From an uncultured Armatimonadia bacterium (GTDB taxonomy: Bacteria > Armatimonadota > Zipacnadia > UBA1398), in NCBI GenBank assembly GCA_964598695.1, contig CAZRDB010000002.1, positions 30,857 through 94,856 on the forward strand: 64,000 bases of DNA. Direction: 5' to 3'. The first letter of the stretch is position 1, and each line of letters starts with the position of its first letter. The notes under the pieces are model-generated. The model saw nothing but the letters and a program-made list of their open reading frames with translations, did no database searches and was not told the origin of the DNA. Shown here piece after piece: positions 5,345 to 56,069 of this stretch. A program made the translations under genes and the position numbers.

Positions 5345-5365
5345 GGCGGAAGGCTCGGTACTCGG

Positions 5366-7357
5366 ATGGTGGAGGAGCACGGACAACTGGTGGAGGCTGG
5401 CGAGGCGTCGGCGATGCCGCGCGCGCGGCTGACGCTGCGCGCGCTTGTGCTCGGCCTGGCGCTCTCCATCTTCAACTGCTACTGGGTGGCGGTGATGGAG
5501 GTCCGGTGGTACGTCCTCGACGGGACGTGCCTACCGCTGTTCGTCACGCCGATCTTCGCACTGCTGCTGCTGGCGTTCGTCAACCGCGGCTTGAGCCGGA
5601 TCCTGCCGCGGCTCGCCCTCCGACCGGCCGAGCTGCTCGTCGTCTACGTGATGATGGTCGTCTCGTGCGCGATGTGCGGCCACGACACCATCGCCAATCT
5701 GATCGGCACCGTCGGTCACCTCACCCAGCACACCACGCACGAGAACCAGTGGGGCACGCTGTTCGGCGGCCTCTTCCCCGACTGGATGTGGGTCGACGAC
5801 AAGCGCGCCCTGCTGCGCTTCTACGAGGGCGGCAAGCGGATGCCGTTCTTCGACTTCTTCGCCCCCGGCGTGGTGATGCCGTGGATGCCGAGCCTCGGCA
5901 TCTGGCTCGGCTTCTTCGCGATCGCCTGCTTCACGATGCTCGCCCTAGCCGTCGTGCTCCGCCGGTCGTGGATCGAGCATGAGCGCCTGAGCTTCCCGAT
6001 CGTCCAGCTCCCGCTCGCGGTCACCCGGCCGGCGCTCGAGAACGTCCTCGGCAACCGCGCGTTCTGGATCGGCTTCGCCATCGCGGCGTTCATCAGCCTC
6101 ATCAACGGCCTCTCGGTGCTCAACCCGCAGTGGCCCAAGTTCACGCGCGTGAAGCTCACGTACCTCAACACCTTCTTCACGACCCCGCCCTTCAACGCCG
6201 TCGACGCCCGGCTCGGGGCCTACCCGTTCGGGGTCGGGCTCGCCTACTTCCTGCCCACCGATCTGAGCTTCTCGTGCTGGTTCTTCTTCGTCGCTCGCAT
6301 GTTCCAGCAGGTCTGGCGCGCCAGCAGCGGGTGGATCAAGGCCGACTACTTCGGCGAGCAGTCGATGGGCGCGTGGCTCGTGATGGTCGCTCTCCTGCTG
6401 TGGGCGGGGCGCAAGCAGCTCCGCGGCCTCTCGCGGCGTGCCCTGGAGCAGGAGGCGATCCGAGAACCCCGCGAAGCGCTCCGACGCCGGCTCGCGATGG
6501 GCGTCGTCATCGCCGGCACCGCGCTGATGATCGGCTACGCCCACTTCGCCGGGCTCCGGTTGTCGTTCTCGATCCTGTTCTTCGTGCTCTACTTCGGCCT
6601 CGCCATCGCGATCACGCGCGTCCGGGCCGAGATGGGAGCGCCGCACGAGATCTACTTCGTCCAGCCGCGCGACCTGATCGTCACCCTCTTCGGCACGAGC
6701 TTCTTCACCAACGGGATGGGGCCGTTCCGCGGCGGCCACCAGAAGGACCTCGCGATCATGTGCTCCTTCTTCTGGCTCACCCGCGGCAACCGCAACCACC
6801 CGATGCCCAATTACCTCGAGGCGTTCAAGATCGCCCAGTCGGTCAACCTCCCCGTGGGCTCGATGACCTTCGTGCTGGTCCTCGGCACGATCGTCTCGAT
6901 CCTCGCCGCCACCTCGGCCAACCTGCACATCCCGTACCTCTACGGCGGCGTCTCGAAGATGAAGGGCTTCAAGACCTGGGTGGGCGCCGAGACCTTCCAG
7001 CGCCTCCAGGACTGGCTCGTCAACCCCCGCGCGCCGGACTCCGGCGGCCTCAAGGCCCTGCTGTTCGGCGGCGTCGTCGCGAGCCTGCTCTCGATGCTGC
7101 GCACCCGCTTCGTCGGCTTCCCGTTCCACCCCGCCGGCTACGCGCTCGCCACGAGCTTCGCGCTCGACTACTTCTGGTTCAGCTTCCTGGTCGGGTGGCT
7201 CGCCAAGGCCAGCATCCTCCGCTGGGGCGGGCAGAAGACCCACCGTGGCGCCGCGCCGTTCTTCCTCGGCCTGGTCGCCGGCGACTACTTCCTGGGTGCG
7301 TTCTGGTCCCTGTACGGGATGTTCAAGGACGTCCAGGTGTACCAGATGTACATCTAG
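5366..7357 (+). CDS. Uncharacterised polytopic inner-membrane protein, paralog B of 3383..5344
   Basis: Same length class (663 vs 653 aa) and the same architecture as paralog A, with a related motif RLSFPIVQLPLAVTRPALE. ATG at 5366 lies 22 nt after the previous stop; an alternative in-frame ATG at 5414 (MPRARLTL...) is possible. Confidence 0.55.
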   Translation: MVEEHGQLVEAGEASAMPRARLTLRALVLGLALSIFNCYWVAVMEVRWYVLDGTCLPLFVTPIFALLLLAFVNRGLSRILPRLALRPAELLVVYVMMVVSCAMCGHDTIANLIGTVGHLTQHTTHENQWGTLFGGLFPDWMWVDDKRALLRFYEGGKRMPFFDFFAPGVVMPWMPSLGIWLGFFAIACFTMLALAVVLRRSWIEHERLSFPIVQLPLAVTRPALENVLGNRAFWIGFAIAAFISLINGLSVLNPQWPKFTRVKLTYLNTFFTTPPFNAVDARLGAYPFGVGLAYFLPTDLSFSCWFFFVARMFQQVWRASSGWIKADYFGEQSMGAWLVMVALLLWAGRKQLRGLSRRALEQEAIREPREALRRRLAMGVVIAGTALMIGYAHFAGLRLSFSILFFVLYFGLAIAITRVRAEMGAPHEIYFVQPRDLIVTLFGTSFFTNGMGPFRGGHQKDLAIMCSFFWLTRGNRNHPMPNYLEAFKIAQSVNLPVGSMTFVLVLGTIVSILAATSANLHIPYLYGGVSKMKGFKTWVGAETFQRLQDWLVNPRAPDSGGLKALLFGGVVASLLSMLRTRFVGFPFHPAGYALATSFALDYFWFSFLVGWLAKASILRWGGQKTHRGAAPFFLGLVAGDYFLGAFWSLYGMFKDVQVYQMYI

Positions 7358-10204: not shown

Positions 10205-11458
10205 CTACCCCTTCGGGTTCGTCACCCGCCCGAGGAACAGCACGAGTCCGGTCTTCGTGTCGCGGATGAGATACAGGAACGGGTGGTCGGCGAGGAAGCT
10301 CGCCTTGCACTTGCTGGCGGGCACCGGCCCGGCGGTCCCCGCGGACGCCTCGATCCCTCGCTCGTTCACCTTCAGCCATGTCGCGTGGTGGACATCGTCG
10401 ACCCAGAGCCCGCCACTCCCCGTCATGCCGCTCAGGTCGGCCGCGTCGAACGCGAGCGGCATCCCCATCGCCGACAGCACAGGCTTCAGCCTCGCGCTCG
10501 CTTCGAGCTCCCAGCGCGGGAGAGCCACCTCGACGAAGCAGGTCTCGGTCGGCGCGCCGGCAAGGGCGACGGCGTCCTCCCATGCGCCGCTCGCGAGGGG
10601 GATCGCGCCCTCTTGCGGCAGCAGGATCGCCATCTCCACGGTGGTCTGCCGGCAGGGAAGGTGCAGGACCTGGCACGGTACGCCCCCCACGGTCCCCTCC
10701 GCGTACTCCATGTGATCGTTGCGGTGCATCATCTGGGCCGTCACCGTGCGTCGCGGTGTGTGGAACGGACCGGGGCGCGTCAGCGCGAGGTTGAACTCGG
10801 TCTCCCACGGGGCGAGCAGGTACAGCGCGTTCGCGAGCACCAGTTGGGTGTTCCTGTCGGTCGCTCCCCGAGGCAGCAGCTCGGGGATGTGCCCGCCCGT
10901 GCGCTCGGAGACCCAGCGGTTGACCTCGGCCTGCCCGGGCTTCGGGTATGTGGTCTGGTGGATCGACCCGCCGAAGTCGCGCTCGATCGCCGCGCGGTAG
11001 TCTGCGAGCGGCGTGCAACCTTCGCCGAGCCACAGGCTGTTGGCGGGGCGCAGTGTGGCGCGGGCCGTGTTCGCCCGCAGGTCGAGGTCGAGCCGGTTGA
11101 GCGCCGGCCCGAGGCGGTCGTCGGGGAGGCCGAAGCCGCAGACGGTCCGGATCTGCTCGCGCGTCTCGCCTCGCGCCCCAAGGCAGACCATCCCGAGCGT
11201 CACCCCGAGGCTGTAGGGGGAGATGCAGAGGTTGTCCTCGTTGCCCTTCGCGAGTTCGGCCGCGAGCCGCAGGCCGAAGAGCGCGTTGCCCTCCGCGAGC
11301 TTGGCGGTCTCCTCCGGCGAGGCCTCGGGGTTCTGGTCGCGAGCCGCGGCGAGCGGCTCCGCGGGCACAGCGCGCTCGGGGCGCTCGCTCCGGCAGCCCG
11401 TGAGACCGAGGGCGACGACCAACCCCACTCCCAGAGCCACCGCGCGCCATCCCGCCAT
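10205..11458 (-). CDS. Serpin (serine protease inhibitor) family lipoprotein
   Basis: C-terminal serpin signature FLADHPFLYLIRDTKTGLVLFLGRVTNP. The hinge/RCL reads NERGIEASAGTAGPVPASKCK, with the GIEASAGTA hinge intact. The N-terminus MAGWRAVALGVGLVVALGLTGC carries a lipobox LTGC. Confidence 0.85.
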   Translation of the reverse strand: MAGWRAVALGVGLVVALGLTGCRSERPERAVPAEPLAAARDQNPEASPEETAKLAEGNALFGLRLAAELAKGNEDNLCISPYSLGVTLGMVCLGARGETREQIRTVCGFGLPDDRLGPALNRLDLDLRANTARATLRPANSLWLGEGCTPLADYRAAIERDFGGSIHQTTYPKPGQAEVNRWVSERTGGHIPELLPRGATDRNTQLVLANALYLLAPWETEFNLALTRPGPFHTPRRTVTAQMMHRNDHMEYAEGTVGGVPCQVLHLPCRQTTVEMAILLPQEGAIPLASGAWEDAVALAGAPTETCFVEVALPRWELEASARLKPVLSAMGMPLAFDAADLSGMTGSGGLWVDDVHHATWLKVNERGIEASAGTAGPVPASKCKASFLADHPFLYLIRDTKTGLVLFLGRVTNPKG

Positions 11459-11513
11459 GGAGCCCCATCCCCTCCGCCGTGCCCGCGCCGATCCAGGTCT
11501 GCACTCCTTAGTT

Positions 11514-11533
11514 GGCCCCGCGCCCCCGGGGCC
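11514..11533 (-). terminator. Candidate stem-loop (7-bp GC stem, 6-nt loop) between the DUF1559 gene and the serpin gene
   Basis: ggccccg cgcccc cggggcc lies about 90 nt downstream of the stop of 11624..12388 (minus strand). There is no U-tract, so this is weak. Confidence 0.25.
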
Positions 11534-11623
11534 GGACGCGAGGTTCGGTCCCGTACAGCGCTACGCCCGGGAGTCCTCGCGGGAGACCCGGGCGTTACGC
11601 GGCGGCGGAGTGGTTGGCAGGAG

Positions 11624-33573: not shown

Positions 33574-33599
33574 CGCGGAGGCCCGGCCGGGCCTCCGCG
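33574..33599 (+). terminator. Perfect 26-nt GC palindrome (about 11-13 bp stem) after the lipoprotein gene
   Basis: cgcggaggcccggccgggcctccgcg equals its own reverse complement. Lies 26 nt after the stop at 33548. Confidence 0.6.
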
Positions 33600-33630
33600 C
33601 ACGCCTGTGCAGGATTCGGTACGATCCGAC

Positions 33631-33680
33631 ATGTATAGTATGCATGATCGGTATGCATAGGCGGTGATCGCACAATGCAT
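33631..33680 (+). promoter_or_regulatory. AT-rich island with three ATGCAT palindromic hexamers (putative promoter/operator of the AbrB-like gene)
   Basis: About 80 bp of roughly 45% GC in a roughly 70% GC genome: ...atgtatagTATGCATgatcggTATGCATaggcggtgatcgcacaATGCATgac. The third hexamer contains the start codon and no Shine-Dalgarno is obvious. Confidence 0.45.
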
Positions 33681-33959
33681 GACAAAGCAGACCCCGAACC
33701 CGAGGGCGCGTGGAGCGACGAGAGCTACTGCGGCTTCGTGACGGTCGGTGAGCGGGGCCAGGTCGTTATCCCGGCCGCCCTGCGACGCGACTGCGCGATC
33801 AACCCGGGCGATCGCCTCCTCGCGGCCCGCGCCCCGGTCGGGGGAGGGGTCGTCTTCGCCAAGATGGAGGTCCTCCGCGATCTGCTCGCGCGCATGGGTC
33901 TGCCGACCGGACCGCCCGACCGCCCTGAGCGGCCCAAGGCCAAGGGAGGCGGGAAGTGA
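33675..33959 (+). CDS. AbrB/MazE/SpoVT-family (swapped-hairpin) DNA-binding protein
   Basis: GFVTVGERGQVVIPAALRRDCAINPGDRL matches the AbrB/MazE N-terminal domain pattern. 94 aa; the stop overlaps the TolC start (GTGA). Confidence 0.7.
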   Translation: MHDKADPEPEGAWSDESYCGFVTVGERGQVVIPAALRRDCAINPGDRLLAARAPVGGGVVFAKMEVLRDLLARMGLPTGPPDRPERPKAKGGGK

Positions 33960-35320
33960 TCCTCTCACGGCACGCCGCGCTCGCCTGTGTCCTGCTCGCG
34001 CCGCTGGCCCGTGCGGCGGCGGGGCAGGAGGCGCCCCTCGCCGCGCAGGCCCCGGAGCCCTGGGGCCTCGCCGACTGCATTCGGTACGCGGTGGAGCACT
34101 CGCCCCGGCTGCACGCCGAACGTCACCGGCTGCGGGCCGCGCGCGAAGCCGTGGCTGAGGCACGGGCCGGCGACGACGCCCGGACCGTCGTGCAGGGAAC
34201 GGGCGCGGCCCAGGCCCCCGAGCTGAGCATTACCCTCCCCGAGGACCGCGTCGTCCGCGTCAGCCCGGCCACCCAGGCCTCACTGTCGATCTCGACGGTG
34301 CTGCCGCTCGACGTCTCCCACTACTGGCGCTATCGCCGCGACGGCGCCACGGAATCAGCCAGCGCCCAGGCCGAGCAGCTCCGACAGGCGGCCGAGCAGC
34401 TCGTGCTCGACACGATCACCGGCTACTACCGCGTGCTCATGGCCGCGGCCGGGCTCGATGCCGCGCGCGAGGCCGTGGGCGTGGCCGAGGCCGAACTGGC
34501 TCGGACGCGGGCCCGCCTCGCGGCCGGCGTCGCGACTCCCGCCCTGCTCGCGGTCGCCGAGTCCGCTCTCACCGACGCCCGCACCAAGCTGACCGCGCTG
34601 GAGCTGGCCTTCGCCGACGCCAACGCGTTCCTGGCCACGACCCTCGGCCTTCCCACCGAGCAGGCGCCCCCGCTGCTCGACGCCCCCCTCGAGCTGGACA
34701 CCTCGACGCCGTGGGAGGAAGCCCGCGATCTCGCGCTCCAGGAGCGCCCTGAGCTTGCCGGGCTCGTCCACTCGGCCGCCGCGCTCGGAGCCACCGCCCA
34801 GGCGATCCGCGCCAGCACGAAGCCGAGCCTCAGCCTCAGCGCCGGTGGAGGGCTCAACACGCCGGGCAGCCTCGCGAGCCCGACACGGAGCCTCCGTGCC
34901 GGCCTCGCCTTCTCCTGGCCCCTCGGCGGCAATGGATCGGCCCGCGCACAGGCCCGCAGCGCCGAGGAGCGTCGCGAGGCCGTGCTGCAGGATCTCGAGC
35001 AGACCCGGCTGCTCGTCGAGACGAAGGTCTACACCGCGATCAGCCGCCTCGAGGAGGTCGCCGCGACGCTCGAGGCCGACCGGTCGGCTCTCGCCGAGGC
35101 GGAGGCACTCGCCCTGCAGACACGGCTGCGCCACGAGGCCGGCGTCGCGACCGCCCAGGAGGTCGCCGCGCGGGCCTGCGCCGTGAGTGCCGCGCGGGCA
35201 CGGCTCCATGCCGACGAGTGCGACCAGTCGCTCGCCCGAGCTGAGTGGGCGCGGGCCCTGGGCATCCTGAGCCGTCTGGCGTTCGGTCCGCCGGCGCACA
35301 CGCGGGAGGTACAGCCATGA
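33956..35320 (+). CDS. TolC-family outer-membrane efflux protein
   Basis: Signal peptide MILSRHAALACVLLAPLARAAAGQ. Two OEP repeats with ...DTITGYYRVLMAAAGLDAAREAV... GTG start with agggagg upstream. Confidence 0.8.
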   Translation: MILSRHAALACVLLAPLARAAAGQEAPLAAQAPEPWGLADCIRYAVEHSPRLHAERHRLRAAREAVAEARAGDDARTVVQGTGAAQAPELSITLPEDRVVRVSPATQASLSISTVLPLDVSHYWRYRRDGATESASAQAEQLRQAAEQLVLDTITGYYRVLMAAAGLDAAREAVGVAEAELARTRARLAAGVATPALLAVAESALTDARTKLTALELAFADANAFLATTLGLPTEQAPPLLDAPLELDTSTPWEEARDLALQERPELAGLVHSAAALGATAQAIRASTKPSLSLSAGGGLNTPGSLASPTRSLRAGLAFSWPLGGNGSARAQARSAEERREAVLQDLEQTRLLVETKVYTAISRLEEVAATLEADRSALAEAEALALQTRLRHEAGVATAQEVAARACAVSAARARLHADECDQSLARAEWARALGILSRLAFGPPAHTREVQP

Positions 35321-37167
35321 AGTCACGACTGCGCATCGTGGTGCCCGTCTTGCTGCTCGCGGCCGCGGCCGTGGGGCTCGCCTACGCCCGCCACGCCCGC
35401 ACCGTCGCCGACGCCGAGGGTGCCGTCTCCGGCAGCGGGACGGTCGAGGCGACCGAGGTCGCCGTCTCGGCCGAGGCCAACGGGCGCATCACGGTCCTGC
35501 GGGTCGAGGAGGGGCAGGCCGTCGAGGAGGGCGCGGTCATCGCCGAGCTGGCGCACAGCGTGCTCGACGCCCAGCAGAAGCAGGCCGAGGCCGCCGCGTA
35601 TGCCGCCCGCATGCAGCTCGCCGAGGTCGCGCGGGGCGCCCGCTCCGAGGAAGTCCGCGCCCGCGCCGCCACGTTGAAGGAAGCGAGTGCCTCGCTGCTC
35701 GGCGCGCAGACCCAGCGCAACATCGCCCGCGAGTCGCTGGAGCATCCCACCGACCTGCAGGCGGCCGTCGACAGCGCCCAGACCCAGATCGCCCTTGCCG
35801 AGGCGCAGCTCGCCGCCTCCTCGGCGCTGCGCGACGAGGCGGTCAGCGGCCCCCGGGCCGAGGAGATCGCCTCAGCGCGCGCCGCGCTCGCCCAAGCCGA
35901 TGCCGCCGTGAGCGGAGCCGTCGCCGAGTGCGCTGAAGCCGAGCGGGCCTGCGCCGCCCGCGAGGCGGCCCGCACGCCGATTACCAAGGCCGAGACCGAA
36001 CTCGCGATGGGGGAGGCGGCCCGTGCCGCCGCCGAAGCGCGCCGCCAGCAGGTGGAGAACCCGCCCCGGCCCGCGAAGCGCGAGCAGGTGACGCACCAGA
36101 TCGCCGCCGCGCGCTCGGCCTACTCCCTGGCGGAGCAGAACGCCTCCCGCGTGCAGCGCCTGCGCGAGGCCGATGCGGCGACCGATCAGGAACTCGACTC
36201 GGCGGTTACCGCCCGCGACCAGGCGCTCGCGAGCCTCAACACGGCCGAGGCCGCCCTGGCCGACCTCGACGCCGGCGCCCGCGAGGCCGAACGACGGGAG
36301 GCCGCCGCGGGCGTCGCCCAGGCCACCGCCGGTGTCCAGGGCGCGCGCGCGCAGATCGCGAACGCGGGCCACGAGCAGGAGGCCCAGGTCGCCCAGGCCC
36401 GCCAGCAGCTTGCCCGCGCCCGGTCGGCCGTCGAGCAGGCCCGCGAGGTTCGCGCGCAGGCGGCCTCCCGCCTCGCGCTGCTGGAGGTCGGCACCCGGCC
36501 GGAGCAGCTCCGCCAGGCCGAGGCCCAGCTTACGGGGTCCGACGCCGGGCTTCTCGGCGCGCGCACGGCTCTCGCCAACGCCAGCACCGCCCACGCTCAG
36601 CGGTTCGCCCAGCGCCAGCAGGTTGCGGCCACCGAGCAGGCGGTCGGCGTCGCCGAAGCAAAGGTCCAGGCGGCCCGTGCCCAGCTCGATCTCGCCCTCG
36701 CGGGCAACACCGACGAGCTGGTTCAGGTCGCGCAGGGCAAGGCGATGGAGGCCGACGCGGCCGTCGAGGTCGTGAAGGCCCGCGTCAACGACTGCTACAT
36801 CCGGGCCCCGCGCGCCGGCACCATCAGCGAGATCGTGTTGCGCGAGGGCGAGATGGTCTCGCCCGGAGCCACGATCGTCCGGATGCTCGACCTCTCGAGT
36901 CTGTGGGTGCGGGTCTACCTGCCGGTCAAGCAGTTCGGCAAGGTCCGGCTCGGAACGACGGCCCAGGTTCGGACGGACGCCGACCCGAGCAAGGCCTACC
37001 CGGGCCAGGTCGTCGCCGTCAGCGACGAATCGGAGTTCACGCCCCGCAACACGCAGACCGTCGAGGAGCGCGTGAAGCAGGTGTTCTGGGTGAAGGTCGG
37101 CGTTGGCGACGGCCAGGGCGAACTGAAGCCCGGCATGCCCGCCGACGTCGCACTGGCCGAGCGCTAG
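35317..37167 (+). CDS. HlyD-family periplasmic adaptor (membrane fusion protein) with an exceptionally long coiled-coil hairpin
   Basis: N-terminal TM anchor MKSRLRIVVPVLLLAAAAVGLAY, barrel-sandwich start GTVEATEVAVSAEANGRITVLRVEEGQAVEEGAVIAEL, then roughly 450 aa of A/E/R/Q-rich heptad sequence, and a C-terminal beta-barrel IRAPRAGTISEIVLREGEMVSPGATIVRMLD. ATGA overlap with the TolC gene. Confidence 0.8.
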   Translation: MKSRLRIVVPVLLLAAAAVGLAYARHARTVADAEGAVSGSGTVEATEVAVSAEANGRITVLRVEEGQAVEEGAVIAELAHSVLDAQQKQAEAAAYAARMQLAEVARGARSEEVRARAATLKEASASLLGAQTQRNIARESLEHPTDLQAAVDSAQTQIALAEAQLAASSALRDEAVSGPRAEEIASARAALAQADAAVSGAVAECAEAERACAAREAARTPITKAETELAMGEAARAAAEARRQQVENPPRPAKREQVTHQIAAARSAYSLAEQNASRVQRLREADAATDQELDSAVTARDQALASLNTAEAALADLDAGAREAERREAAAGVAQATAGVQGARAQIANAGHEQEAQVAQARQQLARARSAVEQAREVRAQAASRLALLEVGTRPEQLRQAEAQLTGSDAGLLGARTALANASTAHAQRFAQRQQVAATEQAVGVAEAKVQAARAQLDLALAGNTDELVQVAQGKAMEADAAVEVVKARVNDCYIRAPRAGTISEIVLREGEMVSPGATIVRMLDLSSLWVRVYLPVKQFGKVRLGTTAQVRTDADPSKAYPGQVVAVSDESEFTPRNTQTVEERVKQVFWVKVGVGDGQGELKPGMPADVALAER

Positions 37168-37206
37168 AGCAGTTCTCGAAAGCTCCCGCGCGCAAGAGCG
37201 AAGAGC

Positions 37207-37291
37207 GACAACCTGCGGAGGGTTGCCCCTCCGCACCACCCTAGGCGGTTGCCGTCGGGGCCAAAGCCCGCGAGCCCCGACGACAACCGCT
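37207..37291 (+). repeat. REP-like palindromic element, copy A (9-bp-stem hairpin tgcggaggg-ttgc-ccctccgca plus a second 18-bp imperfect hairpin)
   Basis: gacaacctgcggagggttgcccctccgcaccaccctaggcggttgccgtcggggcc, then aaagcccgcga, then gccccgacgacaaccgct. The 16-nt arm (37210-37225) and 19-nt arm (37244-37262) are identical to the reverse complement of copy B at 43061-43076 and 43025-43043. Confidence 0.7.
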
Positions 37292-37402
37292 CAGGTCGAG
37301 CAGAAGGACGAGCACTCGACAGACCGCCTCTCGCCGCTGGTACCTGCAGGGACTTTCGGGAACCACTCGAGCGAGCCGCGGGACGGGAAGGACAGGGGAG
37401 TC

Positions 37403-38824
37403 GTGGAGGCGCCGCTCTGGCACAAGGTCGCCGCCGGTGTGATCTTCGCCGCCGCCTATGTGCTGATCGCGACCGACCGCTTCGACAAGACCAAGGTGGC
37501 GTTGCTCGGCGCCGTCGCCATGCTGCTGCTCGGCGTCGTCTCCCAGCACGATGCCTTCGGCGTGCATGAGCGAAGCCTCAGCGTGGTCGAGCACGTCGCC
37601 GCCGCCGAGCCCTCGCTCGGGGAGGAGGGCGTGGTCGAGGACCTCGAGCGGGCCGGGCTCCGCGACGTGCCCGGCGTGGACTGGAACACGATCGTCCTGC
37701 TGCTCGGCATGATGATCTACGTGGGGGTTCTCGGCCGCACCGGCGCGCTCCAGTGGGTCGCAGTCCGGTGCGCGAAGCTCGCGCGCGGGGAGCCCGTCGT
37801 CATCATGGTGCTCCTCGCGAGCGTGACCGGCATCGTCTCGGCCGCGCTCGACAACGTCACGACGATCCTTCTCATCGCGCCGGTCACGCTGCTGCTGTGT
37901 GAGGCCTTGGGCGTCAGCCCGATCCCCATGCTCATCGCCGAGGTGCTCGCGTCGAATATCGGCGGGACGGCGACGCTGGTGGGCGATCCGCCGAACATCA
38001 TCATCGCCTCGGCGGCCGGGTTCGGGTTCACGGAGTTCCTGATCCACCTCGCGCCCGTGGTCGTGGTCCTGCTGGTCGCCTTCGGTCCCTACGCCATCCT
38101 CATCTGGGGCCCGGAGCTGCGGGCCTCGCCCGAGCGCAAGCGCGCCGTGCTCGCGCTCGACGAACGCAAGGCGATCCGCGACCCGCGCTTGCTGCGGAAG
38201 TGCCTCTGGATCGGCGGGCTCATCCTCGCCGGGTTCCTGGTGCAGGGGCCGCTCGGCTGGGGTCCCGCGACCGTTGCGCTCGCCGGCGCCGTGCTGCTTC
38301 TGGCGATCGCGCGGCTGCCGCTCGAGGACGGCCTGCGCGGCGTCGAGTGGGCCACGCTGTTCTTCTTCATCGGCCTGTTCATCATGGTCGGCGGGTTGGT
38401 GAAGGTCGGCCTCGTCCAGGCCGCGAGCCAGTGGATCCTCGTGCGCTTCGGCGGCAACACGCTCGTGCTGGCCCTCGTCATCCTGTGGTTCAGCGCGATC
38501 GCCAGCGCGGTGGTCGACAACATCCCCTACGTCGCGACCATGTGTCCGCTGATCAACAGCCTCGCGCGGGCGATCACCGACCTCCCGGCCGCCGAGGCCG
38601 CGCACGACCCGAGGATCCTGCCGCTGTGGTGGGCGCTCGCCCTCGGAGCCTGCCTGGGTGGGAACGGGACTCTGGTCGGCGCGTCGGCCAACGTCGTCGC
38701 CGCGGGACTGGCCGAGAAGGCAGGATCGCGGATCACCTTCCGCGAGTTCACCCGGCACGGGGCGCCGGTGGCGCTCTCGACCGTCGGCGTCTCCACGATC
38801 TACCTGCTGATCCGCTATCTGTAG
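37403..38824 (+). CDS. ArsB/NhaD-superfamily (CitMHS-like) anion/cation permease
   Basis: LWHKVAAGVIFAAAYVLIATDRFDKTKVALLGAVAMLLLGV and a duplicated permease repeat, about 12 TM. Proposed GTG start at 37403 (gggaagga upstream). The track ORF's TTG start at 37223 lies inside the REP hairpin and is rejected. Confidence 0.65.
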   Translation: MEAPLWHKVAAGVIFAAAYVLIATDRFDKTKVALLGAVAMLLLGVVSQHDAFGVHERSLSVVEHVAAAEPSLGEEGVVEDLERAGLRDVPGVDWNTIVLLLGMMIYVGVLGRTGALQWVAVRCAKLARGEPVVIMVLLASVTGIVSAALDNVTTILLIAPVTLLLCEALGVSPIPMLIAEVLASNIGGTATLVGDPPNIIIASAAGFGFTEFLIHLAPVVVVLLVAFGPYAILIWGPELRASPERKRAVLALDERKAIRDPRLLRKCLWIGGLILAGFLVQGPLGWGPATVALAGAVLLLAIARLPLEDGLRGVEWATLFFFIGLFIMVGGLVKVGLVQAASQWILVRFGGNTLVLALVILWFSAIASAVVDNIPYVATMCPLINSLARAITDLPAAEAAHDPRILPLWWALALGACLGGNGTLVGASANVVAAGLAEKAGSRITFREFTRHGAPVALSTVGVSTIYLLIRYL

Positions 38825-38841
38825 AAGAGGAGCGCGGCGCG

Positions 38842-39792
38842 GTGAGCGACTCCGCCCCCCGACAACACGCGGTCGAGACGACGGGGCTCTCGAAGCTCTT
38901 CGGGAGCGTCCGCGCCGTGGACGGCGTCGATCTGTCGGTGCGCGCTGGCGAGGTCTTCGGCCTGATCGGCGCCGACGGCGCCGGCAAGACCACGCTGCTC
39001 CGCATGTTGTGCGGTGTGCTGAGCCCGGACGGCGGCGAAGCGCGCGTGGCCGGCCGCGACGTGCTCCGGGAGCCTGAAGCCGTCAAGCGTCGCATCGGCT
39101 ACCTCTCCCAGGCGTTCAGCCTCTACGCCGATCTCACGGTCGAAGAGAACGTCGACTTCTGCGCCGACCTGTACTGCACGCCCCGGACGGAGGTGAAGCG
39201 GCTGAAGGACGACATGCTCACGATGACCAACCTCGCGCCCTTCCGCCGCCGCCTCGCGGGCCGTCTGTCGGGCGGCATGAAGCAGAAGCTGGGGCTGATC
39301 TGCGCCCTGATCCATCGGCCTGAGGTGCTGATCCTCGACGAGCCCACGACGGGTGTCGACCCCATCTCGCGCCGCGACTTCTGGCAGATCCTCGCCGACC
39401 TGCCCGCCCAGGGCGTCACCGTGCTGCTCAGCTCCCCGTACATGGATGAGGCCTCCCGTTGCCACCGCCTCGCGGTCATGCACCGGGGCAAGGTGCTCGC
39501 GACCGGCACGACCGAGGAGCTGCAGCGGGCCGTCGAGGGCGCCGTGCTCGAGATCGTGACCACCGAGGTCCGCCCGGCCCTCGATGCCCTCGCCGGCCTC
39601 GAGGGCCTCCTCAGCCTCACCCCCTTCGGCGATGCGCTCCATGCGCGCGTCCGTTCCGAGCAGGGGGCCATCGAGCGAGCGGGGGCGGCGCTGGCCGCGG
39701 CAGGCGTTCCCTGCGCGAGCATCGCCGTCGTGGAGGCGAGCCTCGAGGATGCCTTCCTCGAGGCCGTCGGCCGGGCGGGTGCGAGCCGATGA
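38842..39792 (+). CDS. ABC transporter ATP-binding protein (ABC-2/YbhF-type, first of two)
   Basis: Walker A GADGAGKTT, signature LSGGMKQK, Walker B LILDEPT. GTG at 38842 with gaagaggag upstream. Confidence 0.85.
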   Translation: MSDSAPRQHAVETTGLSKLFGSVRAVDGVDLSVRAGEVFGLIGADGAGKTTLLRMLCGVLSPDGGEARVAGRDVLREPEAVKRRIGYLSQAFSLYADLTVEENVDFCADLYCTPRTEVKRLKDDMLTMTNLAPFRRRLAGRLSGGMKQKLGLICALIHRPEVLILDEPTTGVDPISRRDFWQILADLPAQGVTVLLSSPYMDEASRCHRLAVMHRGKVLATGTTEELQRAVEGAVLEIVTTEVRPALDALAGLEGLLSLTPFGDALHARVRSEQGAIERAGAALAAAGVPCASIAVVEASLEDAFLEAVGRAGASR

Positions 39793-40739
39793 GCGCGCCT
39801 CTCGCGATCGACATCCGCGACCTGACCAAGCGCTTCGGCGGCTTCACCGCCGTCGACCAGGTGAGCCTGACCGTCGAGCCCGGGGAGGTCTTCGGCTTCC
39901 TGGGCCCCAACGGGTGCGGCAAGTCGACCACCATCCGCATGCTGTGCGGCTTGCTGCGCCCCTCCAGCGGGCACGCCAGCGTCGCCGGGCTCGACGTCGC
40001 GCGGCAGTCGGAGGCCGTCCGGCGGCGGATCGGCTACGTCGCCCAGTTCTTCTACCTCTACGGCGATCTCACCGTCGCGGAGAACATGGACCTCTACGGG
40101 GGGATCTACGGCGTTTCCGACGCGATCCTCCGCGAGAGGATCGGCCACTGGCTCGACCGGCTCGACCTCGCCGAGATCCGCGACGTGCCGGCCGACGCCC
40201 TCTCGACCGGCGTCCAGCGACGGCTCTCGCTGGCCTGTGCCGTCCTGCACGAGCCCCCCGTCCTGCTGCTCGACGAACCTACGAGCGGGGTCGACCCGGC
40301 CGCGCGGCGCGAGTTCTTCGCGGTGATCGGGGAGCTGGCCGAGCGCGGCGCCGCGATCCTGGTCACGACGCACGTGATGGACGAGGCCGAGCGCTGCAAC
40401 CGGCTCGCGCTGATGAACCGGGGACGCATCCGGGCGCTCGGCACGCCGGCCGAGATCAAGCAGAGCTGCCCGGGCGCCTTCTATGCGCTGCGCGTGGCCG
40501 AGGTCAAACGCACCGTCGAGCGCGCGCGCGAGCACCCCGCCGTCTGGCACGCCCATCCCTTCGGCGTCGAGGTCCAGCTCCAACTCACGGAGGCCAACCC
40601 GGCCGTCGCCGAGGAGGTCTGCCGCTGGCTCCGCGAGCAGGGGATCGACTGCGGTCCGCCGCGGCCGGTCCGCGCGACGATCGAGCACACCTTCCTCAGC
40701 CTGCTGGGGCAGGACGCGGACGAAGGGGTGGGAGCGTGA
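39789..40739 (+). CDS. ABC transporter ATP-binding protein (second of two)
   Basis: GPNGCGKST, LSTGVQRR, LLLDEPT. ATGA overlap with the previous ATPase. Confidence 0.85.
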   Translation: MSAPLAIDIRDLTKRFGGFTAVDQVSLTVEPGEVFGFLGPNGCGKSTTIRMLCGLLRPSSGHASVAGLDVARQSEAVRRRIGYVAQFFYLYGDLTVAENMDLYGGIYGVSDAILRERIGHWLDRLDLAEIRDVPADALSTGVQRRLSLACAVLHEPPVLLLDEPTSGVDPAARREFFAVIGELAERGAAILVTTHVMDEAERCNRLALMNRGRIRALGTPAEIKQSCPGAFYALRVAEVKRTVERAREHPAVWHAHPFGVEVQLQLTEANPAVAEEVCRWLREQGIDCGPPRPVRATIEHTFLSLLGQDADEGVGA

Positions 40740-41860
40740 GGCGCCTCTGGGCCGTGGCCCGCAAGGAGTTCGTTCACCTCAGGCGCGACCCCCGCAGCCT
40801 GATCGCGGCCGTGATCCTCCCCGTCACCCTGCTGCTGCTGTACGGATTCGCCGTCGACTTCGACCTGAAGTACCTGCCCTTCGCGGTGGTCGACCACGAC
40901 CACACGCAGGCCTCGCGGCGCGCGATCGAGGCGGTCTCCACGATCCATGGCTTCCACAACATCGGGCCCCTCGAGAGCGCCGACGAGGCCGAGGAGGTCT
41001 TCGCGCGCCGGCGGGCGATGGCCGTCGTGGTGATCCCGGCCGGCTTCGAGTCCGACCTGATCGGCCGTCGACCGGCCTCGCTCCAGATCCTCATCGACGG
41101 CGCCAACAGCACGATGGCCTCGACGGCGGTCGCCTACCTGAACGGCGCGGCGGAGGCGATCGGGGCCCGGCTCGTGGTCCAGACGCTCTCGACGACGGCC
41201 TTCCGGATGCCTCGCTCGTCGGTGGAGGCGCGCGTCCGGGTGCTGTACAACCCGAACCTGAGAAGCCGGGTCTTCCTCGTCCCCGGCCTCATCGCCATCA
41301 TCCTCATGCTCATGGCGGCGCTGCTCACCTCCGGGACCGTGGTCCGCGAGCGCGAGCGGGGGAGCTTCGAGCTGCTCGCGGCCAGCCCGCTCAGCCCGCT
41401 CGAGATGCTGCTCGGCAAGCTGCTGCCCTACTGGATCCTCTCGGCCCTCGACGTGGTCCTCGTGGTCGCGACGGGCTGGATCGTCTTCGGCGTCGCGCCC
41501 AAAGGCAATCTGCTCCTGTTGTTCGCCGTCTCGACCGTCTTCGTCGCCTCGGCCCTCTCGCTCGGGCTGCTGTTCTCCTGCATCATGCGCACGCAGCAGC
41601 TCGCGTTCCTCATCTCGTTCATCACGACGGTCCTGCCCACCATGCTGCTCTCGGGCTTCGCCTTCCCCGTCCGCAACATGCCGCGGCCGCTGCAATTGCT
41701 GGCGCAGATCTTCCCCGCCACCCACTACATCCCGGTCGTCCGCGCCGTGATCCTCAAGGGCTCCGGCTGGGACGTCATCCGGATCCGCGTCGCCGTGCTC
41801 ACCCTGATCGCGACGATCCTCGTCTGGATCGCGCTCCGGAGCTTCCGCAAGACCCTGTGA
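40736..41860 (+). CDS. ABC-2 family transporter permease (YbhS/YbhR-like)
   Basis: GTGA overlap with the ATPase gene. N-terminus VRRLWAVARKEFVHLRRDPRSLIAAVILP typical of ABC-2 permeases; 6 TM. Confidence 0.8.
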   Translation: MRRLWAVARKEFVHLRRDPRSLIAAVILPVTLLLLYGFAVDFDLKYLPFAVVDHDHTQASRRAIEAVSTIHGFHNIGPLESADEAEEVFARRRAMAVVVIPAGFESDLIGRRPASLQILIDGANSTMASTAVAYLNGAAEAIGARLVVQTLSTTAFRMPRSSVEARVRVLYNPNLRSRVFLVPGLIAIILMLMAALLTSGTVVRERERGSFELLAASPLSPLEMLLGKLLPYWILSALDVVLVVATGWIVFGVAPKGNLLLLFAVSTVFVASALSLGLLFSCIMRTQQLAFLISFITTVLPTMLLSGFAFPVRNMPRPLQLLAQIFPATHYIPVVRAVILKGSGWDVIRIRVAVLTLIATILVWIALRSFRKTL

Positions 41861-41879
41861 GAGGAAGGGAGGTCGGCCG

Positions 41880-43001
41880 ATGCGTTTCCGCAAGCTGCTG
41901 AAGAAGGAGGTCCGCCAGTTCGTGCGCAACACCTACATGCTGCGCATGGCGATCCTCATGCCGATCTTCCAGACCCTGCTGCTCTCCTTCGCCGCGAACA
42001 CCGACGTCGTTCATGTCCCCGTTGTGGTCTACGACGAGGACGCCTCGCGCCACAGCCGCGAGTTCGCGGCCAAGATCGACTCGACCGTCACCTTCGACGT
42101 CACCCGCTACGTGCTGAGCCCCGCCGCGGTCGAGCGTCAGCTCGAGACCGGCGCGGCCGAGGTCGGCCTGGTCATCCCCCGCGGCTTCGACCGCGACCTC
42201 GAGCGCGGCGGCGCGACCGCCCAGGTGCTCGTCAACGGCGCCGACTCGACCACCGCGCTGGCCGCGGGTAGCTACCTCGGCCAGGTTGCGGCCGGCTACA
42301 ACACCGCCGTGCGCACCGAGCTGGCCGAGCGGCGCGGACCGTTGCCGCAGTTGCCCTCGATCCGCGCCGAGACCCGCGTTCTCTACAACCCCGACCTGCG
42401 AAGCCTGTGGTTCATGGCCCCCGGCGTCATGGCGATGGTCCTGCTGATCCTCATGCAGAACTTCAGCGCTCTGACCGTGGCCCGCGAACGCGAGCTGGGG
42501 ACCTTCGAGCAACTCGTCATCACCCCGGTCCGGTCGTGGGAGGTGCTGCTCGCGAAGCTCGTACCCCTCGCAGCGGTCGGGATCCTCGGCGGCGTGGTCG
42601 TCTGTCTGCTGGTCGTGTTTCTGCTCGGGGTCCCCCTGCGCGGCTCCATCCCCGCCCTCGCGGCCGCGACGCTGTCCTTCGTGGCCGCGAGCCTGGGTCT
42701 CGGCCTGCTGGTCTCCACGGTCTCCGCCAACCAGCAGCAGGCGCAGATGATGAACTTCTTCCTGATCTTCCCCTCGGTGCTGCTCTCGGGCTTCATCTTC
42801 CCGGTGGAGAACCTCCCTGTGCCGCTGTGGTGGGTGAGCCGGTTCGTGCCGCTCACCTACTACCTGGAGGTCATCCGTGGCGTGTTCCTGCGGGGCGCGG
42901 GGGTCGGTGCTCTCCTGACCCCGCAGATCCTCCCCCTCGCCGGGCTCGCCCTGGCCTTCTTCGCGCTCGGCGCCGTCCGTTTCCGCAAGCGCCTCGACTA
43001 G
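41880..43001 (+). CDS. ABC-2 family transporter permease (second copy)
   Basis: MRFRKLLKKEVRQFVRNTYMLRMAILMPIFQTLLL is an ABC-2 N-terminus. gaagggagg RBS. Confidence 0.8.
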   Translation: MRFRKLLKKEVRQFVRNTYMLRMAILMPIFQTLLLSFAANTDVVHVPVVVYDEDASRHSREFAAKIDSTVTFDVTRYVLSPAAVERQLETGAAEVGLVIPRGFDRDLERGGATAQVLVNGADSTTALAAGSYLGQVAAGYNTAVRTELAERRGPLPQLPSIRAETRVLYNPDLRSLWFMAPGVMAMVLLILMQNFSALTVARERELGTFEQLVITPVRSWEVLLAKLVPLAAVGILGGVVVCLLVVFLLGVPLRGSIPALAAATLSFVAASLGLGLLVSTVSANQQQAQMMNFFLIFPSVLLSGFIFPVENLPVPLWWVSRFVPLTYYLEVIRGVFLRGAGVGALLTPQILPLAGLALAFFALGAVRFRKRLD

Positions 43002-43120
43002 AGCGGCTCCCGGAAGTCGCTGCAGGCCCCGACGGCAACCGCCTCGGGTGGTGGGTGGGCCAACCCTCCGCAGGTTGCCGCTCGTCGCGCGTGCGCGCGG
43101 GAACTCGCGAGAGCCGCTCT
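43000..43120 (-). repeat. REP-like palindromic element, copy B (inverted relative to copy A), itself flanked by a 10-bp inverted repeat
   Basis: Core 43025-43079 is ggccccgacggcaaccgcctcgggtggtgggtgggccaaccctccgcaggttgcc. Its reverse complement matches copy A across two perfect blocks. Flanking 10-bp IR: agagcggctc (43000-43009) and gagccgctct (43111-43120). Confidence 0.65.
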
Positions 43121-43266
43121 CGAGCCGCCCGCCATCCGCCTCCGCCCTTGACGCCTCCCGGCCGCGCGCAGCAGGATACTGGTCAGACGCTGCGAAGCTC
43201 TAAGCTCGGACCGGCGGGTCGGGACTCCCGCCCCCCCGGAGAGCGGACTCGCGGAGGAGCACACAC

Positions 43267-43662
43267 ATGGCCAAGGAGAAGGTCCTGGTCGTCGATGACG
43301 AACGCGCGGTCGTCATGGTCATCGAGACCAACCTGCGGATCGCCGGCTACCAGGTCGTGACGGCCTACAACGGCCGCGAGGCCCTGGAGAAGATCCGCGC
43401 CGAGCATCCGGCGTGCGTGCTGCTCGACGTGATGATGCCCGAGATGAACGGCTGGGACGTGCTGCGCGAGATCCGCGCCGACGCGACGATCGAGCGTACG
43501 CAGGTCATCATGCTCACCGCGATGGCCGAGGACTCCGATATCACCAAGGGCTATGAACTCGGCGTCGACCACTACCTCACGAAGCCGTTCGAGCCGGAGG
43601 AACTCCTCGAGTTCGTCGAGCGCGTCATCGAGATGGGCAAGGACGAGGAGTTGATCGACTAG
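43267..43662 (+). CDS. Stand-alone response-regulator receiver domain (CheY-like)
   Basis: VLVVDDE...LLDVMMPEMNGWDVL...LTAM...LTKPF shows the conserved Asp pocket (DD, D, T, K). ggaggagcacacac upstream of the ATG. Confidence 0.85.
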   Translation: MAKEKVLVVDDERAVVMVIETNLRIAGYQVVTAYNGREALEKIRAEHPACVLLDVMMPEMNGWDVLREIRADATIERTQVIMLTAMAEDSDITKGYELGVDHYLTKPFEPEELLEFVERVIEMGKDEELID

Positions 43663-50129: not shown

Positions 50130-51029
50130 CTACCGAGCCCGCGGGTGGCTGAGGTCGTACTGCTCGCGCAGGAACTCCGTGGTCACGTGGGTGTAGATCT
50201 CGGTCGTCGCGAGGCTCGCGTGGCCGAGCATCTCCTGGATCTCCCGCAGCCCGGCCCCGCCTTCGAGCAGGTGCACGGCGAAGCTGTGCCGCAGCGTGTG
50301 CGGGCTCACGGCGCGCGGGTCGAGCCGGGCGTCCTGCGCGGCGCGCTTGACCAGCCGGAAGACGCCGCTGCGGGAGTAGCGGCAGCCCTTGCCGGAGAGG
50401 AACAGCGCCGGCTCCTCCCTGCTGCGGCAGAAGTGCGGCCGCGCCCGCTCGAGATACGCGGCGCAGCGCTCGAGCGCGACGCGACCGAGCGGTACCCACC
50501 GCTCCTTGTCTCCCTTGCCGAAGCAGCGGAGGAAGCCGCTCCGGAAGTCCACGTCCGCGAGGTCGAGGCCGCACAGCTCCGAGACGCGCGTCCCACTCGC
50601 GTAGAGGAACGTGAGCAGCGCGCGGTCCCGCACGAGCGGCGGCGTCTCGCCTTCGCGGCTCGCGAGCAGGGCCTTCACCTCGTCGATGCTCAGGAAGCCG
50701 GGGAGCCGCTTGCCCCGGCGCGGCAGCGGGATCTCGGCCGAGGGATCCTCGTCGGCGATCCCCTCGCGCACGAGGTGACGGAACAGGCCGCGGACCGCCG
50801 CCAGCCGGCGCACCACCGTCGCGGTCGCCTCGCCCCTCTCGGCCAGCTCCGCCACGAAGGCCTGGAGGGCCGAGGGGCTCACCTCGCTCGGTCGTGTCGT
50901 GCCGCGCTCCTCGAGCCACCCCACCAGCAGGGCAAGGTCGCCGCCGTACGCGGCGAGGGTGTGCGCCGAGAAGCCGCGCTCCACCGCGAGGGTGTCGAGG
51001 TAGACCTGTACCGAGTCGTCGAGCAGCAT
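50130..51029 (-). CDS. Tyrosine site-specific recombinase, XerC/XerD family
   Basis: MLLDDSVQVYLDTLAVERGFSAHTLAAYGGDL is an Xer-type N-terminus. C-terminal catalytic motifs are ARVSELCGL (R), HTLRHSFAVHLLEGG (H-x-x-R), LGHASLATTEIYTHV (H...Y). Start chosen at M32 of the track ORF; M25 at 51050 is an alternative. Confidence 0.8.
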   Translation of the reverse strand: MLLDDSVQVYLDTLAVERGFSAHTLAAYGGDLALLVGWLEERGTTRPSEVSPSALQAFVAELAERGEATATVVRRLAAVRGLFRHLVREGIADEDPSAEIPLPRRGKRLPGFLSIDEVKALLASREGETPPLVRDRALLTFLYASGTRVSELCGLDLADVDFRSGFLRCFGKGDKERWVPLGRVALERCAAYLERARPHFCRSREEPALFLSGKGCRYSRSGVFRLVKRAAQDARLDPRAVSPHTLRHSFAVHLLEGGAGLREIQEMLGHASLATTEIYTHVTTEFLREQYDLSHPRAR

Positions 51030-51124
51030 GGCCGCGTTCGCTCCCGCCATGGTAACGGCGCGTGTGCGGGGCGGGATCGAAGGAGATCCATGCCGCGCGG
51101 AGGAAAGTGCATGCGGGTGCAACT

Positions 51125-53441: not shown

Positions 53442-53462
53442 GCCGGGGAGGGGCTGGGAGCA

Positions 53463-54386
53463 GTGGCCGGCAAAGCGAAGTGGTGGGCGCTCACGAGCAT
53501 CGCGCGGGTCGGGCCGAAGGCCGTTCACCGGCTTCTCGCGGCGTTCGGCTCGCTCGATGAGGCTCTCGAAGCCCCCCCCGAGGAGATCCTCGCGAGCGGG
53601 GCTCTCCGTCCCGACCAGCTCAAGCAGCTCCTGAAGCGCCTCGCGCGCCTCGAGGAGTGGGAGGCGGCGGTCGACGATCTGAGCATGGAGAGCGTCGACC
53701 TTCTGACGCTGGAGTCCGAGGACTACCCCCCTCTCCTGCGCGTGATGCCGGCGCCGCCGCCCGTGCTGTTCGCGCGTGGCTCCGGCCGCGAAGCGTTGCA
53801 GATGCCCGCCGTGGCCATCGTCGGCGCGCGGGAGGCCAGCGAGGAGGGGTGCGCGTTCGCCGAGAGCCTCGCGCGGAGCTTGGCCGCGTCCGGCGCCGTC
53901 GTGGTGAGCGGGATGGCCGTTGGGATCGACCAGGCGGCCCACCTCGGGACCCTGGCAGGCGGCGGGCTGACGGTCGGCGTGCTCGGCTGCGGCCTGCTGA
54001 GTCCTCGGGCGCCCGACCCGGAGCTGTGCGAGGATGTCTGCCGCGCGGGCGTGCTGCTCTCCGAGCTGCAGCCCACCGCCCCGCCCACGGTCGCCAACCT
54101 GATGGCCCGGAACCGGATCGTCGCCGCACTCTCCCGCGTGATGATCGTGGCGGAGTTCGGCGCCACGACGGGATCGGTGAACGCCGCCTCGGCCGCACGA
54201 GCCCTCGGCCGGCCGGTCTTCCTGGGGCCGATCGCCGCGAGCCAACCCGCCGGCGAGGCGGCGCTGGCGGCCGGGGCCGAGCTGCTGGGCGACCCCGGAG
54301 CCGTCGAGCCCGTTCAGGAGGCACTCCGGCGCCCCGTCGGGCCGCCTCCCATGGACCCGAACGGGCAGCTCTCGCTCCCCCTGTAG
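53463..54386 (+). CDS. dprA: DNA-processing protein A (DprA/Smf)
   Basis: AVAIVGAREASEEG...AVVVSGMAVGIDQAAH...NRIVAALSRVMIVAEF is the DprA Rossmann-like core. GTG start. Confidence 0.8.
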   Translation: MAGKAKWWALTSIARVGPKAVHRLLAAFGSLDEALEAPPEEILASGALRPDQLKQLLKRLARLEEWEAAVDDLSMESVDLLTLESEDYPPLLRVMPAPPPVLFARGSGREALQMPAVAIVGAREASEEGCAFAESLARSLAASGAVVVSGMAVGIDQAAHLGTLAGGGLTVGVLGCGLLSPRAPDPELCEDVCRAGVLLSELQPTAPPTVANLMARNRIVAALSRVMIVAEFGATTGSVNAASAARALGRPVFLGPIAASQPAGEAALAAGAELLGDPGAVEPVQEALRRPVGPPPMDPNGQLSLPL

Positions 54387-56032: not shown

Positions 56033-56069
56033 ACAGAGCCCCGCCCGGGCTTCCCGGGCGGGGCTCTGT
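56033..56069 (+). terminator. Bidirectional intrinsic terminator (16-bp perfect stem, 4-nt loop) between convergent genes
   Basis: acagagccccgcccggg cttc ccgggcggggctctgt, followed by gtcatctcgtgtgtc. Confidence 0.75.

Follow-up and report, generated by a model that had tools for sequence, protein, structure and literature searches.

A palindromic, probably MITE-like repeat behind two stop codons of an efflux operon in an uncultured Armatimonadota-like bacterium

The efflux operon

The window, by which we mean the whole 64-kb stretch of DNA that was analyzed, comes from an uncultured Armatimonadota-like bacterium (~71% G+C). Both repeat copies described here lie within one tightly and translationally packed, conserved efflux operon on the forward strand. 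The first gene of this operon (33675 to 33959) encodes an AbrB/MazE-like regulator and is followed by genes for an outer-membrane efflux protein of the OEP/TolC-like type (33956 to 35320), for a HlyD-family periplasmic adaptor (35317 to 37167), and for a CitMHS / ArsB-NhaD family permease (37403 to 38824), the 473-amino-acid product of which is identical to database protein P0121. These are followed by two ABC ATPase genes (38842 to 39792 and 39789 to 40739, jointly 38842 to 40739) and two ABC-2 permease genes (40736 to 41860 and 41880 to 43001, jointly 40736 to 43001). A gene for a single-domain response regulator (43267 to 43662, also on the forward strand) is a conserved downstream neighbor.

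Copy A is found 3' of the hlyD-like stop codon, inside the operon, and copy B is found 3' of the second ABC-2 stop codon, at the end of the operon. Since the two sites belong to one operon, the 5.8 kb between them is no module. The initial annotation proposed that the elements bracket a transporter module, a description that does not hold, as the intervening 5.8 kb is merely the distal portion of one conserved operon.

Anatomy of the two copies

The exact inverted matches on which the initial annotation was based were all found at the positions given for them and are far above chance. The 16-mer AACCTGCGGAGGGTTG is present at 37210-37225 (plus strand) and 43061-43076 (minus strand), and the 19-mer GGCGGTTGCCGTCGGGGCC is present at 37244-37262 (plus) and 43025-43043 (minus), compared with chance expectations per window, allowing ≤3 mismatches, of 0.32 for the 16-mer and 0.21 for the 19-mer. 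The distances to the upstream stop codons (43 nt for A and 24 nt for B), the 9-bp stem and ~18-bp imperfect stem in A, and the 10-bp inverted repeat around B (43000-43009 and 43111-43120) were likewise correct. In contrast, the proposed unit size of ~55 bp was too small: the inverted homology extends over roughly double that length. It consists of a long block of 72 nt (37161-37232 versus 43054-43125; 82% identity) and a short block of 29 nt (37234-37262 versus 43025-43053; 97% identity). The copies are 90% identical over a core of 79 nt and, when an 80-nt segment found only in A is taken out, are identical in 107 of 134 columns from end to end; the longest unbroken identity is 20 nt. The repeat is a palindromic, noncoding unit of ~125 nt with terminal inverted repeats of ~20 nt in both copies, where they close a long stem. 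The copies have opposite orientations, and both start at the TA of a TAG stop codon.

Copy A occupies 207 nt (37166 to 37372, plus strand), is homologous to the reverse complement of B, and is equivalent to a B-type unit with the 80-nt segment added internally. Its first two nucleotides are the AG of the TAG stop codon of the hlyD-like gene (37165-37167), its end is at CTCGAG, and its predicted fold has an outer stem in which 37162-37190 pairs with about 37349-37377. The left terminal inverted repeat, GAGCAGTTCTCGAAAGCTCCC (37168 to 37188), aligns with the right end of B and pairs in the fold with 37349-37372, with which it matches (as reverse complement) at ~17 of 21 positions. Internal to it are a 17-nt block identical in A and B, CAACCTGCGGAGGGTTG (37209 to 37225), within which the 9-bp hairpin (37214-37235) starts, and a 20-nt identical block, AGGCGGTTGCCGTCGGGGCC (37243 to 37262). 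The A-only segment (37263 to 37342) contains an inverted copy of the 19-mer arm with 3 mismatches (37273-37291), which gives rise to the ~18-bp hairpin, and also has a second end-like motif, CCGCTCAGGTCGAG (37285-37298). The true right end of A, the terminal inverted repeat CCTGCAGGGACTTTCGGGAACCACTCGAG (37343 to 37372), which matches CCTGCAGCGACTTCCGGGAGCCGCTC of B, is therefore set off from the 19-mer arm by these 80 nt. An apparent third copy, an nhmmer match on the minus strand at 37368-37242, is an echo of the palindromy of the element and of the right end of A.

Copy B (43002 to 43124, minus strand) is an imperfect palindrome of ~123 nt, inverted relative to A, that directly follows the ABC-2 TAG stop codon (42999-43001). 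The left arm of its terminal inverted repeat, AGAGCGGCTC (43000 to 43009), overlaps the AG of this stop codon, and the right arm is GAGCCGCTCT (43111 to 43120). The core arms (GAGCGGCTC and GAGCCGCTC) match at 9 of 9 positions, and the repeat extends to about 20 nt. An independent Logan contig, L001, is 100% identical across copy B.

The dinucleotides flanking the element are TA and GA at copy A and TA and TC at copy B. Each pair is one substitution away from a TA duplication, and a clean target-site duplication is present at neither copy. TA makes up 1.04% of the dinucleotides, and the spacers reconstructed without the element contain no other TA site at A and two at B. The hexamer CTCGAG was rejected as a target site, since it occurs 97 times in the window.

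Empty sites in relatives and searches for further copies

The nearest sampled relative, which has 75 to 78% protein identity, lacks the element at both sites, and the length differences correspond to the lengths of the elements. At site A, the HlyD and CitMHS genes are separated by 235 nt here and by 29 nt in two contigs with 75% CitMHS protein identity. The difference of 206 nt matches the 207-nt element, and removal of copy A leaves a spacer of 30 nt that retains a conserved Shine-Dalgarno block. At site B, the spacer between the ABC-2 gene and the response regulator gene is 265 nt here and 145 nt in the relative's contig (78% ABC-2 identity). The intergenic alignment at this site is by itself not significant, and the evidence that site B is empty consists of the spacer length and the lack of any element sequence. 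Conservation of the ABC-2 C terminus, RFRKRLD, indicates that the ABC-2 stop codon is native. The 84 nt past the stop codon of a Logan protein in the same 90% cluster contain nothing element-like, and more distant relatives are likewise without the element; protein-guided retrieval of orthologous loci from metagenomes yielded a single, distant locus (L126). The proposal that this is a discrete palindromic repeat of the MITE/REP-like type in an intergenic, post-stop position is thus borne out by the matching terminal inverted repeats of both copies and by the empty sites in the nearest relative.

No further copies are present in the other 58 kb of the window. The two-arm pattern had no match in JGI metagenomes or viral contigs, and the element had no match among plasmids by BLASTN in "distant" mode. 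A scan of reference genomes with an 18-mer arm gave at least 117 scattered matches, which we attribute to chance, as none among the matches listed is longer than 22 nt. A chimeric six-frame translation of A and B matched none of 5.8 billion predicted proteins. The window contains no transposase or matching insertion sequence, and no Y1-transposase domain of the RAYT type was found among the window open reading frames scanned. The sole recombinase gene in the window (50130-51122) is XerC/D-like and is separated from the element by 7 kb; a further 2.3 kb or so past it is a DprA gene. A hairpin at 33574-33599 had been thought to share the core of the element and to hint at a genome-wide family. 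The shared core is the 7-mer GCGGAGG, which occurs 46 times in the window, and a profile of the element does not match at that position; the likeness is a chance one and does not support a genome-wide family.

Origin of the repeat and comparison with known systems

Four accounts of the pair can be weighed against these results. We consider it probable, with some reserve, that A and B are two insertions of a noncoding, nonautonomous palindromic element of the MITE/ERIC type. The traits of A and B fit what has been published on bacterial MITEs, namely, terminal inverted repeats, lengths of <200 bp, long RNA stem-loops, a frequent position at the 3' ends of genes, and cotranscription with them (PMC3184786), and so argue for this reading. 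In A and B we find terminal inverted repeats, small size (123 and 207 nt) without coding capacity, and sites that are empty in relatives. An unlikely alternative is a one-off local inverted duplication, in which a palindromic 3' flank of ~125 nt was copied once to a place 5.8 kb away, for example by template switching or hairpin-primed repair, with no mobile family or transposase involved. Such an event would agree with the facts that just two copies are known, 5.8 kb apart in one operon, that the searches for copies outside the window, in metagenomes, viral contigs, plasmids, and predicted proteins, were empty, that there is neither a clean target-site duplication nor a transposase nearby, and that a few bases past one end also match (CTCGAC/GTCGAG). 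However, these databases are distinct from the source genome, and two points ≤5.9 kb apart in a 64-kb window are not unusual (P of about 0.18 by simple arithmetic). Furthermore, neither copy is an arbitrary segment, as each comprises the whole unit with its two terminal inverted repeats. A and B also have opposite orientations, and each is placed exactly on the TA of a stop codon, at a site where the relative has no element.

That the hairpins are a selected cis-acting RNA structure, which terminates transcription or protects the hlyD and ABC-2 mRNAs at their 3' ends, seems to us improbable. In its favor are the strength of the hairpins (−69 kcal/mol and z = −5.9 for the first 136 nt of A), the position of both copies directly after stop codons on the transcribed strand, and the known effect of REP and ERIC elements on mRNA stability (PMC3184786). 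On the mRNA strand, however, the fold of B is not better than those of shuffled sequences (z = −1.5), one sequence would have to serve the same function from either strand, and the relative has neither structure. No Rfam family matches the element at gathering scores, and a permissive search returned only hairpin matches of the miRNA and sRNA type that are far below threshold. The suggestion that the copies are terminators for the upstream genes is not supported: the sequences that follow the stems, CAGGTCGAG and CGAGCCGCC, have no T-run as expected of an intrinsic terminator, a consensus terminator scan detected no terminator-like site at 37160-37380 or 43000-43130, and A interrupts an operon in which the pump genes have to act together, lying between two presumably cotranscribed genes with a spacing of 29 nt in the relative. 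We give next to no credence to the remaining account, in which a 5.8-kb CitMHS-ABC segment with the inverted copies as its ends is invertible or mobile and is flipped by homologous recombination or by a nearby tyrosine recombinase. The repeats are indeed inverted and about 125 nt long, and there is the XerC/D-like gene, but this gene, with its distance from the element and with DprA beyond it, has the appearance of a housekeeping gene. In the relative, the genes of this conserved operon, of which the segment is the distal part, are in the same order without the repeats, and an inversion would cut the ATPases and permeases off from the upstream regulator, OEP, and HlyD genes. The initial annotation regarded the copies as substrates for inversion or excision. 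Segments between inverted repeats cannot be excised, and inversion is countered by the maximum perfect identity of 20 nt, by the damage to the operon, and by the same B junction in an independent read assembly. An inverton of the Xer/dif type was rejected for lack of a dif-like AT-rich core in the element, for the distance of the recombinase, and because the segment is not self-contained. A reversible switch, in which recombination between A and B would invert the segment from CitMHS to the permeases and toggle the pump between off and on states in the population, is highly improbable.

The insertion reading, in which the element is an ordinary bacterial repeat, most likely of the MITE kind, and not a gene-flipping switch, suggests the following history. 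The element would have inserted at two intergenic sites of the efflux operon after the split from the nearest sampled relative, copied by a transposase that acted in trans and was probably TA targeting. As TA accounts for only 1% of dinucleotides, stop codons are among the few available targets. Selection would then have kept the TA inside each stop codon, while the other flank may have drifted to TC or GA, and the extra 80 nt of A could be a later internal insertion or rearrangement. The element would be part of the operon transcript, in which its GC-rich hairpins may have an incidental influence on mRNA stability or on how strongly upstream genes are expressed relative to downstream genes; any such effect would be a side effect and not the reason why the element is present. 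A milder reading than that of a switch is a previously undescribed Armatimonadota MITE family that would home to stop-codon TA in a TA-poor genome. Should a family be confirmed, it would provide one of the early cases of MITE-like repeats from an uncultured phylum that has been little studied, and of a TA-poor genome that funnels TA-targeting elements onto stop codons and hence onto operon junctions. For annotation, the element accounts for a single odd gap of 235 nt among the otherwise closely spaced genes of the efflux operon and cautions against taking an inverted pair for a mobile cassette.

Among known systems, REP/BIME elements resemble A and B as GC-rich extragenic palindromes that follow stop codons, form inverted pairs, and can affect mRNA stability. 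A REP unit, however, is 20 to 40 nt long, has a conserved 5' head of the GTAG type, and is linked to a RAYT gene, while the unit described here is ~125 nt with long terminal inverted repeats and has no RAYT (Y1 transposase) in the window. MITEs such as Correia, RUP, Nezha, and Chunjie share with A and B the terminal inverted repeats, a length of <210 nt, the absence of coding capacity, the intergenic position, and the empty sites in the relative; compared with MITEs in general, A and B do not have an intact target-site duplication, and no parent insertion sequence with matching ends was found in the window. For ERIC (IRU, RU-1) of the Enterobacteriaceae the likeness is one of architecture only; the phylum differs, only two copies are known here, and there is no clean TA duplication. 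Wilson and Sharp, in 2006, are reported to have described longer ERIC variants in which about 70 bp is inserted internally; the extra 80-nt segment of copy A would be comparable to such an insertion. ERIC-type elements have TA flanks (PMC3184786), and PMC2759123 describes related repeats of enterobacteria with unit lengths of 103, 127, and 168 bp. Like A and B, ERIC is an imperfect palindrome, of about 127 bp, with terminal inverted repeats and a long RNA stem-loop, and is found in either orientation in transcribed intergenic regions or the 3' untranslated regions of operons.

Extent and structure of the repeat

Copies A and B share two exact blocks, AACCTGCGGAGGGTTG at 37210-37225(+) and 43061-43076(-) and GGCGGTTGCCGTCGGGGCC at 37244-37262(+) and 43025-43043(-). 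A search of the window recovers both arms where the initial annotation had placed them, and shuffled windows yield on average 0.32 and 0.21 hits, respectively, with ≤3 mismatches. Its 9-bp stem and ~18-bp imperfect stem in copy A and its 10-bp inverted repeat around copy B are also confirmed. The unit, however, is larger than first proposed, as a repeat search extends the inverted homology to 37161-37232 versus 43054-43125 (72 nt, 82%) and 37234-37262 versus 43025-43053 (29 nt, 97%). Using a profile built from both copies, we found the other arm of copy B, CCTGCAGCGACTTCCGGGAGCCGCTC, again in copy A at 37343-37372 as CCTGCAGGGACTTTCGGGAACCACTCGAG, and copy A therefore spans 37166-37372. It is a B-type unit split by an 80-nt segment (37263-37342), which is the source of the inverted partner for the 19-mer arm. 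Once this segment is taken out, A aligns with the reverse complement of B over 134 columns, 107 of them identical, with 90% identity across the central 79 nt. In a fold of the whole A locus, the left end pairs with 37349-37377, which is the same closing stem as that formed by the terminal repeats of B. The unit is a discrete imperfect palindrome of ~125 nt (121 to 123 nt in B) with terminal inverted repeats of ~20 nt, present in two copies of opposite orientation. The first 136 nt of A fold at -69 kcal/mol (z = -5.9), and a 246-nt stretch with the whole A locus folds at -112 kcal/mol.

The window holds other repeats and hairpins. The core that had been taken to link the hairpin at 33574-33599 to the repeat is a 7-mer with 46 occurrences in the window, and this family connection is not supported. 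A GC-rich hairpin at 56033-56069, with a perfect 17-bp stem and a loop of 3 nt, lies between convergent genes and is unrelated in sequence to the element. Two direct repeat pairs, each ~1 kb apart, have 71 to 77% identity: 26064-26203/27059-27198, in adjacent oligopeptide-type ABC ATPase genes, are tandem paralogues, and 12230-12370/13302-13442 are probably paralogous genes beside a 3-keto-disaccharide hydrolase gene.

The operon and the corresponding sites in relatives

The window has a G+C content of ~71%, and among named homologues the closest are MAG proteins with the label Armatimonadetes/Armatimonadota. The genes around both copies form one operon: an AbrB/MazE-like regulator (33675-33959), a TolC-like OEP (33956-35320), an HlyD-family adaptor (35317-37167), a CitMHS/ArsB-NhaD permease (37403-38824), two ABC ATPases (38842-39792 and 39789-40739), and two ABC-2 permeases (40736-41860 and 41880-43001); downstream are genes for a response regulator (43267-43662) and a hydantoinase. 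Except at copy A, which lies in a gap of 235 nt, adjacent genes share 4 nt or are separated by 17 to 19 nt. Given this packing, the 5.8-kb stretch from one copy to the other is the distal part of the operon rather than a bracketed transporter module. The pairing of transporter types is unusual, with a secondary transporter gene that separates the HlyD adaptor gene from the ATPase genes in a ybhGFSR-like tripartite ABC-2 efflux operon; the loci compared (L123/L124, L119/L120, and L130) include a relative with 75% CitMHS identity in which the placement is the same, with 29- and 19-nt spacers. An AT-rich stretch with repeated ATGCAT/TATGCAT motifs (33620-33665), directly upstream of the first gene, is the likely promoter and operator. 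Elsewhere in the window are a large FtsX-like ORF (1-3408), a 683-amino-acid ORF without a Pfam match (3293-5344), a DUF6785/DUF6784 protein gene (5345-7357), and a full-length serpin gene (10205-11560, minus strand; PF00079, E = 7e-80), a family that is uncommon in bacteria.

In the 75% relative (Logan contigs L123/L124), the AbrB-like, OEP, HlyD, CitMHS, and ATPase genes are in the same order and the HlyD-CitMHS gap is 29 nt, the same 29 nt being found in a JGI contig. This spacer is 206 nt longer in the window, as much as copy A accounts for; removing the element leaves 30 nt, and the Shine-Dalgarno block of this reduced spacer aligns with that of the relative (GGGAAGGACAGGGGA versus GGGAAGGGCAGAGGA). 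From the ABC-2 stop to the response regulator there are 265 nt in the window versus 145 nt in a contig of a relative with 78% ABC-2 identity, a difference of 120 nt against an element of 121 to 123 nt. Copy B begins right at the ABC-2 stop codon, which is native, since the C terminus RFRKRLD is conserved; no element-like sequence is present in the first 84 nt past this stop in Logan contigs that encode a protein of the same 90% cluster. Relatives at 60% identity also have no element, they lack CitMHS, and their HlyD and ATPase genes overlap; a 58% CitMHS homologue has an unrelated gene context. The empty sites A and B indicate that both copies entered once this lineage and its nearest sampled relative had diverged. 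All three of the relative's contigs (L127, 3097-3180; L128, 1752-1835; L129, 1721-1770) end 50 to 84 nt past the ABC-2 stop, two of them at one identical base; a repeat at this point in the relative, or heterogeneity among strains, may be the cause.

Alternative roles and origins

The MITE/REP-like part of the initial annotation stands, while its proposals of terminators and of an inversion or excision cassette are not supported. A primary function of the hairpins as terminators or mRNA stabilisers is disfavoured: neither copy has a T-run or a called terminator, B on the mRNA strand forms no better a fold than shuffled sequence does (z = -1.5), A sits within the operon, and neither structure is present in the relative. 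It is also unlikely that the copies are the ends of an invertible 5.8-kb segment. They are identical without interruption over at most 20 nt, an inversion would disrupt the operon, repeat-free loci keep the same gene order, and the B junction is reproduced in an independent assembly of ERR4539293 reads. The sole recombinase in the window lies 7 kb off, a XerC/D-like tyrosine recombinase (50130-51122, minus strand) with Phage_integrase and N-terminal SAM-like domains; a dprA gene (53442-54386, plus strand) is ~2.3 kb further. Both look like housekeeping genes, and we found no link between them and the repeats. A single local duplication is a less likely origin of the second copy, although only two copies are known and no further one was found in JGI metagenomes, viral contigs, plasmids, or the protein universe.

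Probable insertion and nature of the element

The repeat fits a MITE/ERIC-type element, small and non-autonomous: it is a palindromic ~125-nt unit with terminal inverted repeats, occurs as two opposite copies, has empty sites in a relative, and is non-coding (a six-frame protein search found no match). It matches no Rfam family. Both copies start at a TAG stop codon, on its TA (TA|GAGCAGTTC and TA|GAGCGGCTC); TA makes up only 1.04% of window dinucleotides, and 0 and 2 other TA sites, respectively, were available in the reconstructed spacers. No intact target duplication is seen at either copy, the opposite flanks being GA or TC. Insertion was probably targeted to TA, in which case selection would have preserved the TA within each stop codon and the other flank would have drifted. 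The extra 80 nt in A look as if they were inserted, or arose by rearrangement, inside the unit at a later time, and ERIC has long variants comparable to this copy. The element is presumably transcribed along with the operon, giving strong hairpins, and whatever influence these have on mRNA stability or the upstream/downstream expression ratio would be incidental.

Terminal-repeat palindromes without coding capacity are published hallmarks of bacterial MITEs, many of which are located at gene 3' ends and cotranscribed (PMC3184786). ERIC-type copies have TA flanks (PMC3184786), and both copies here start at a stop-codon TA.
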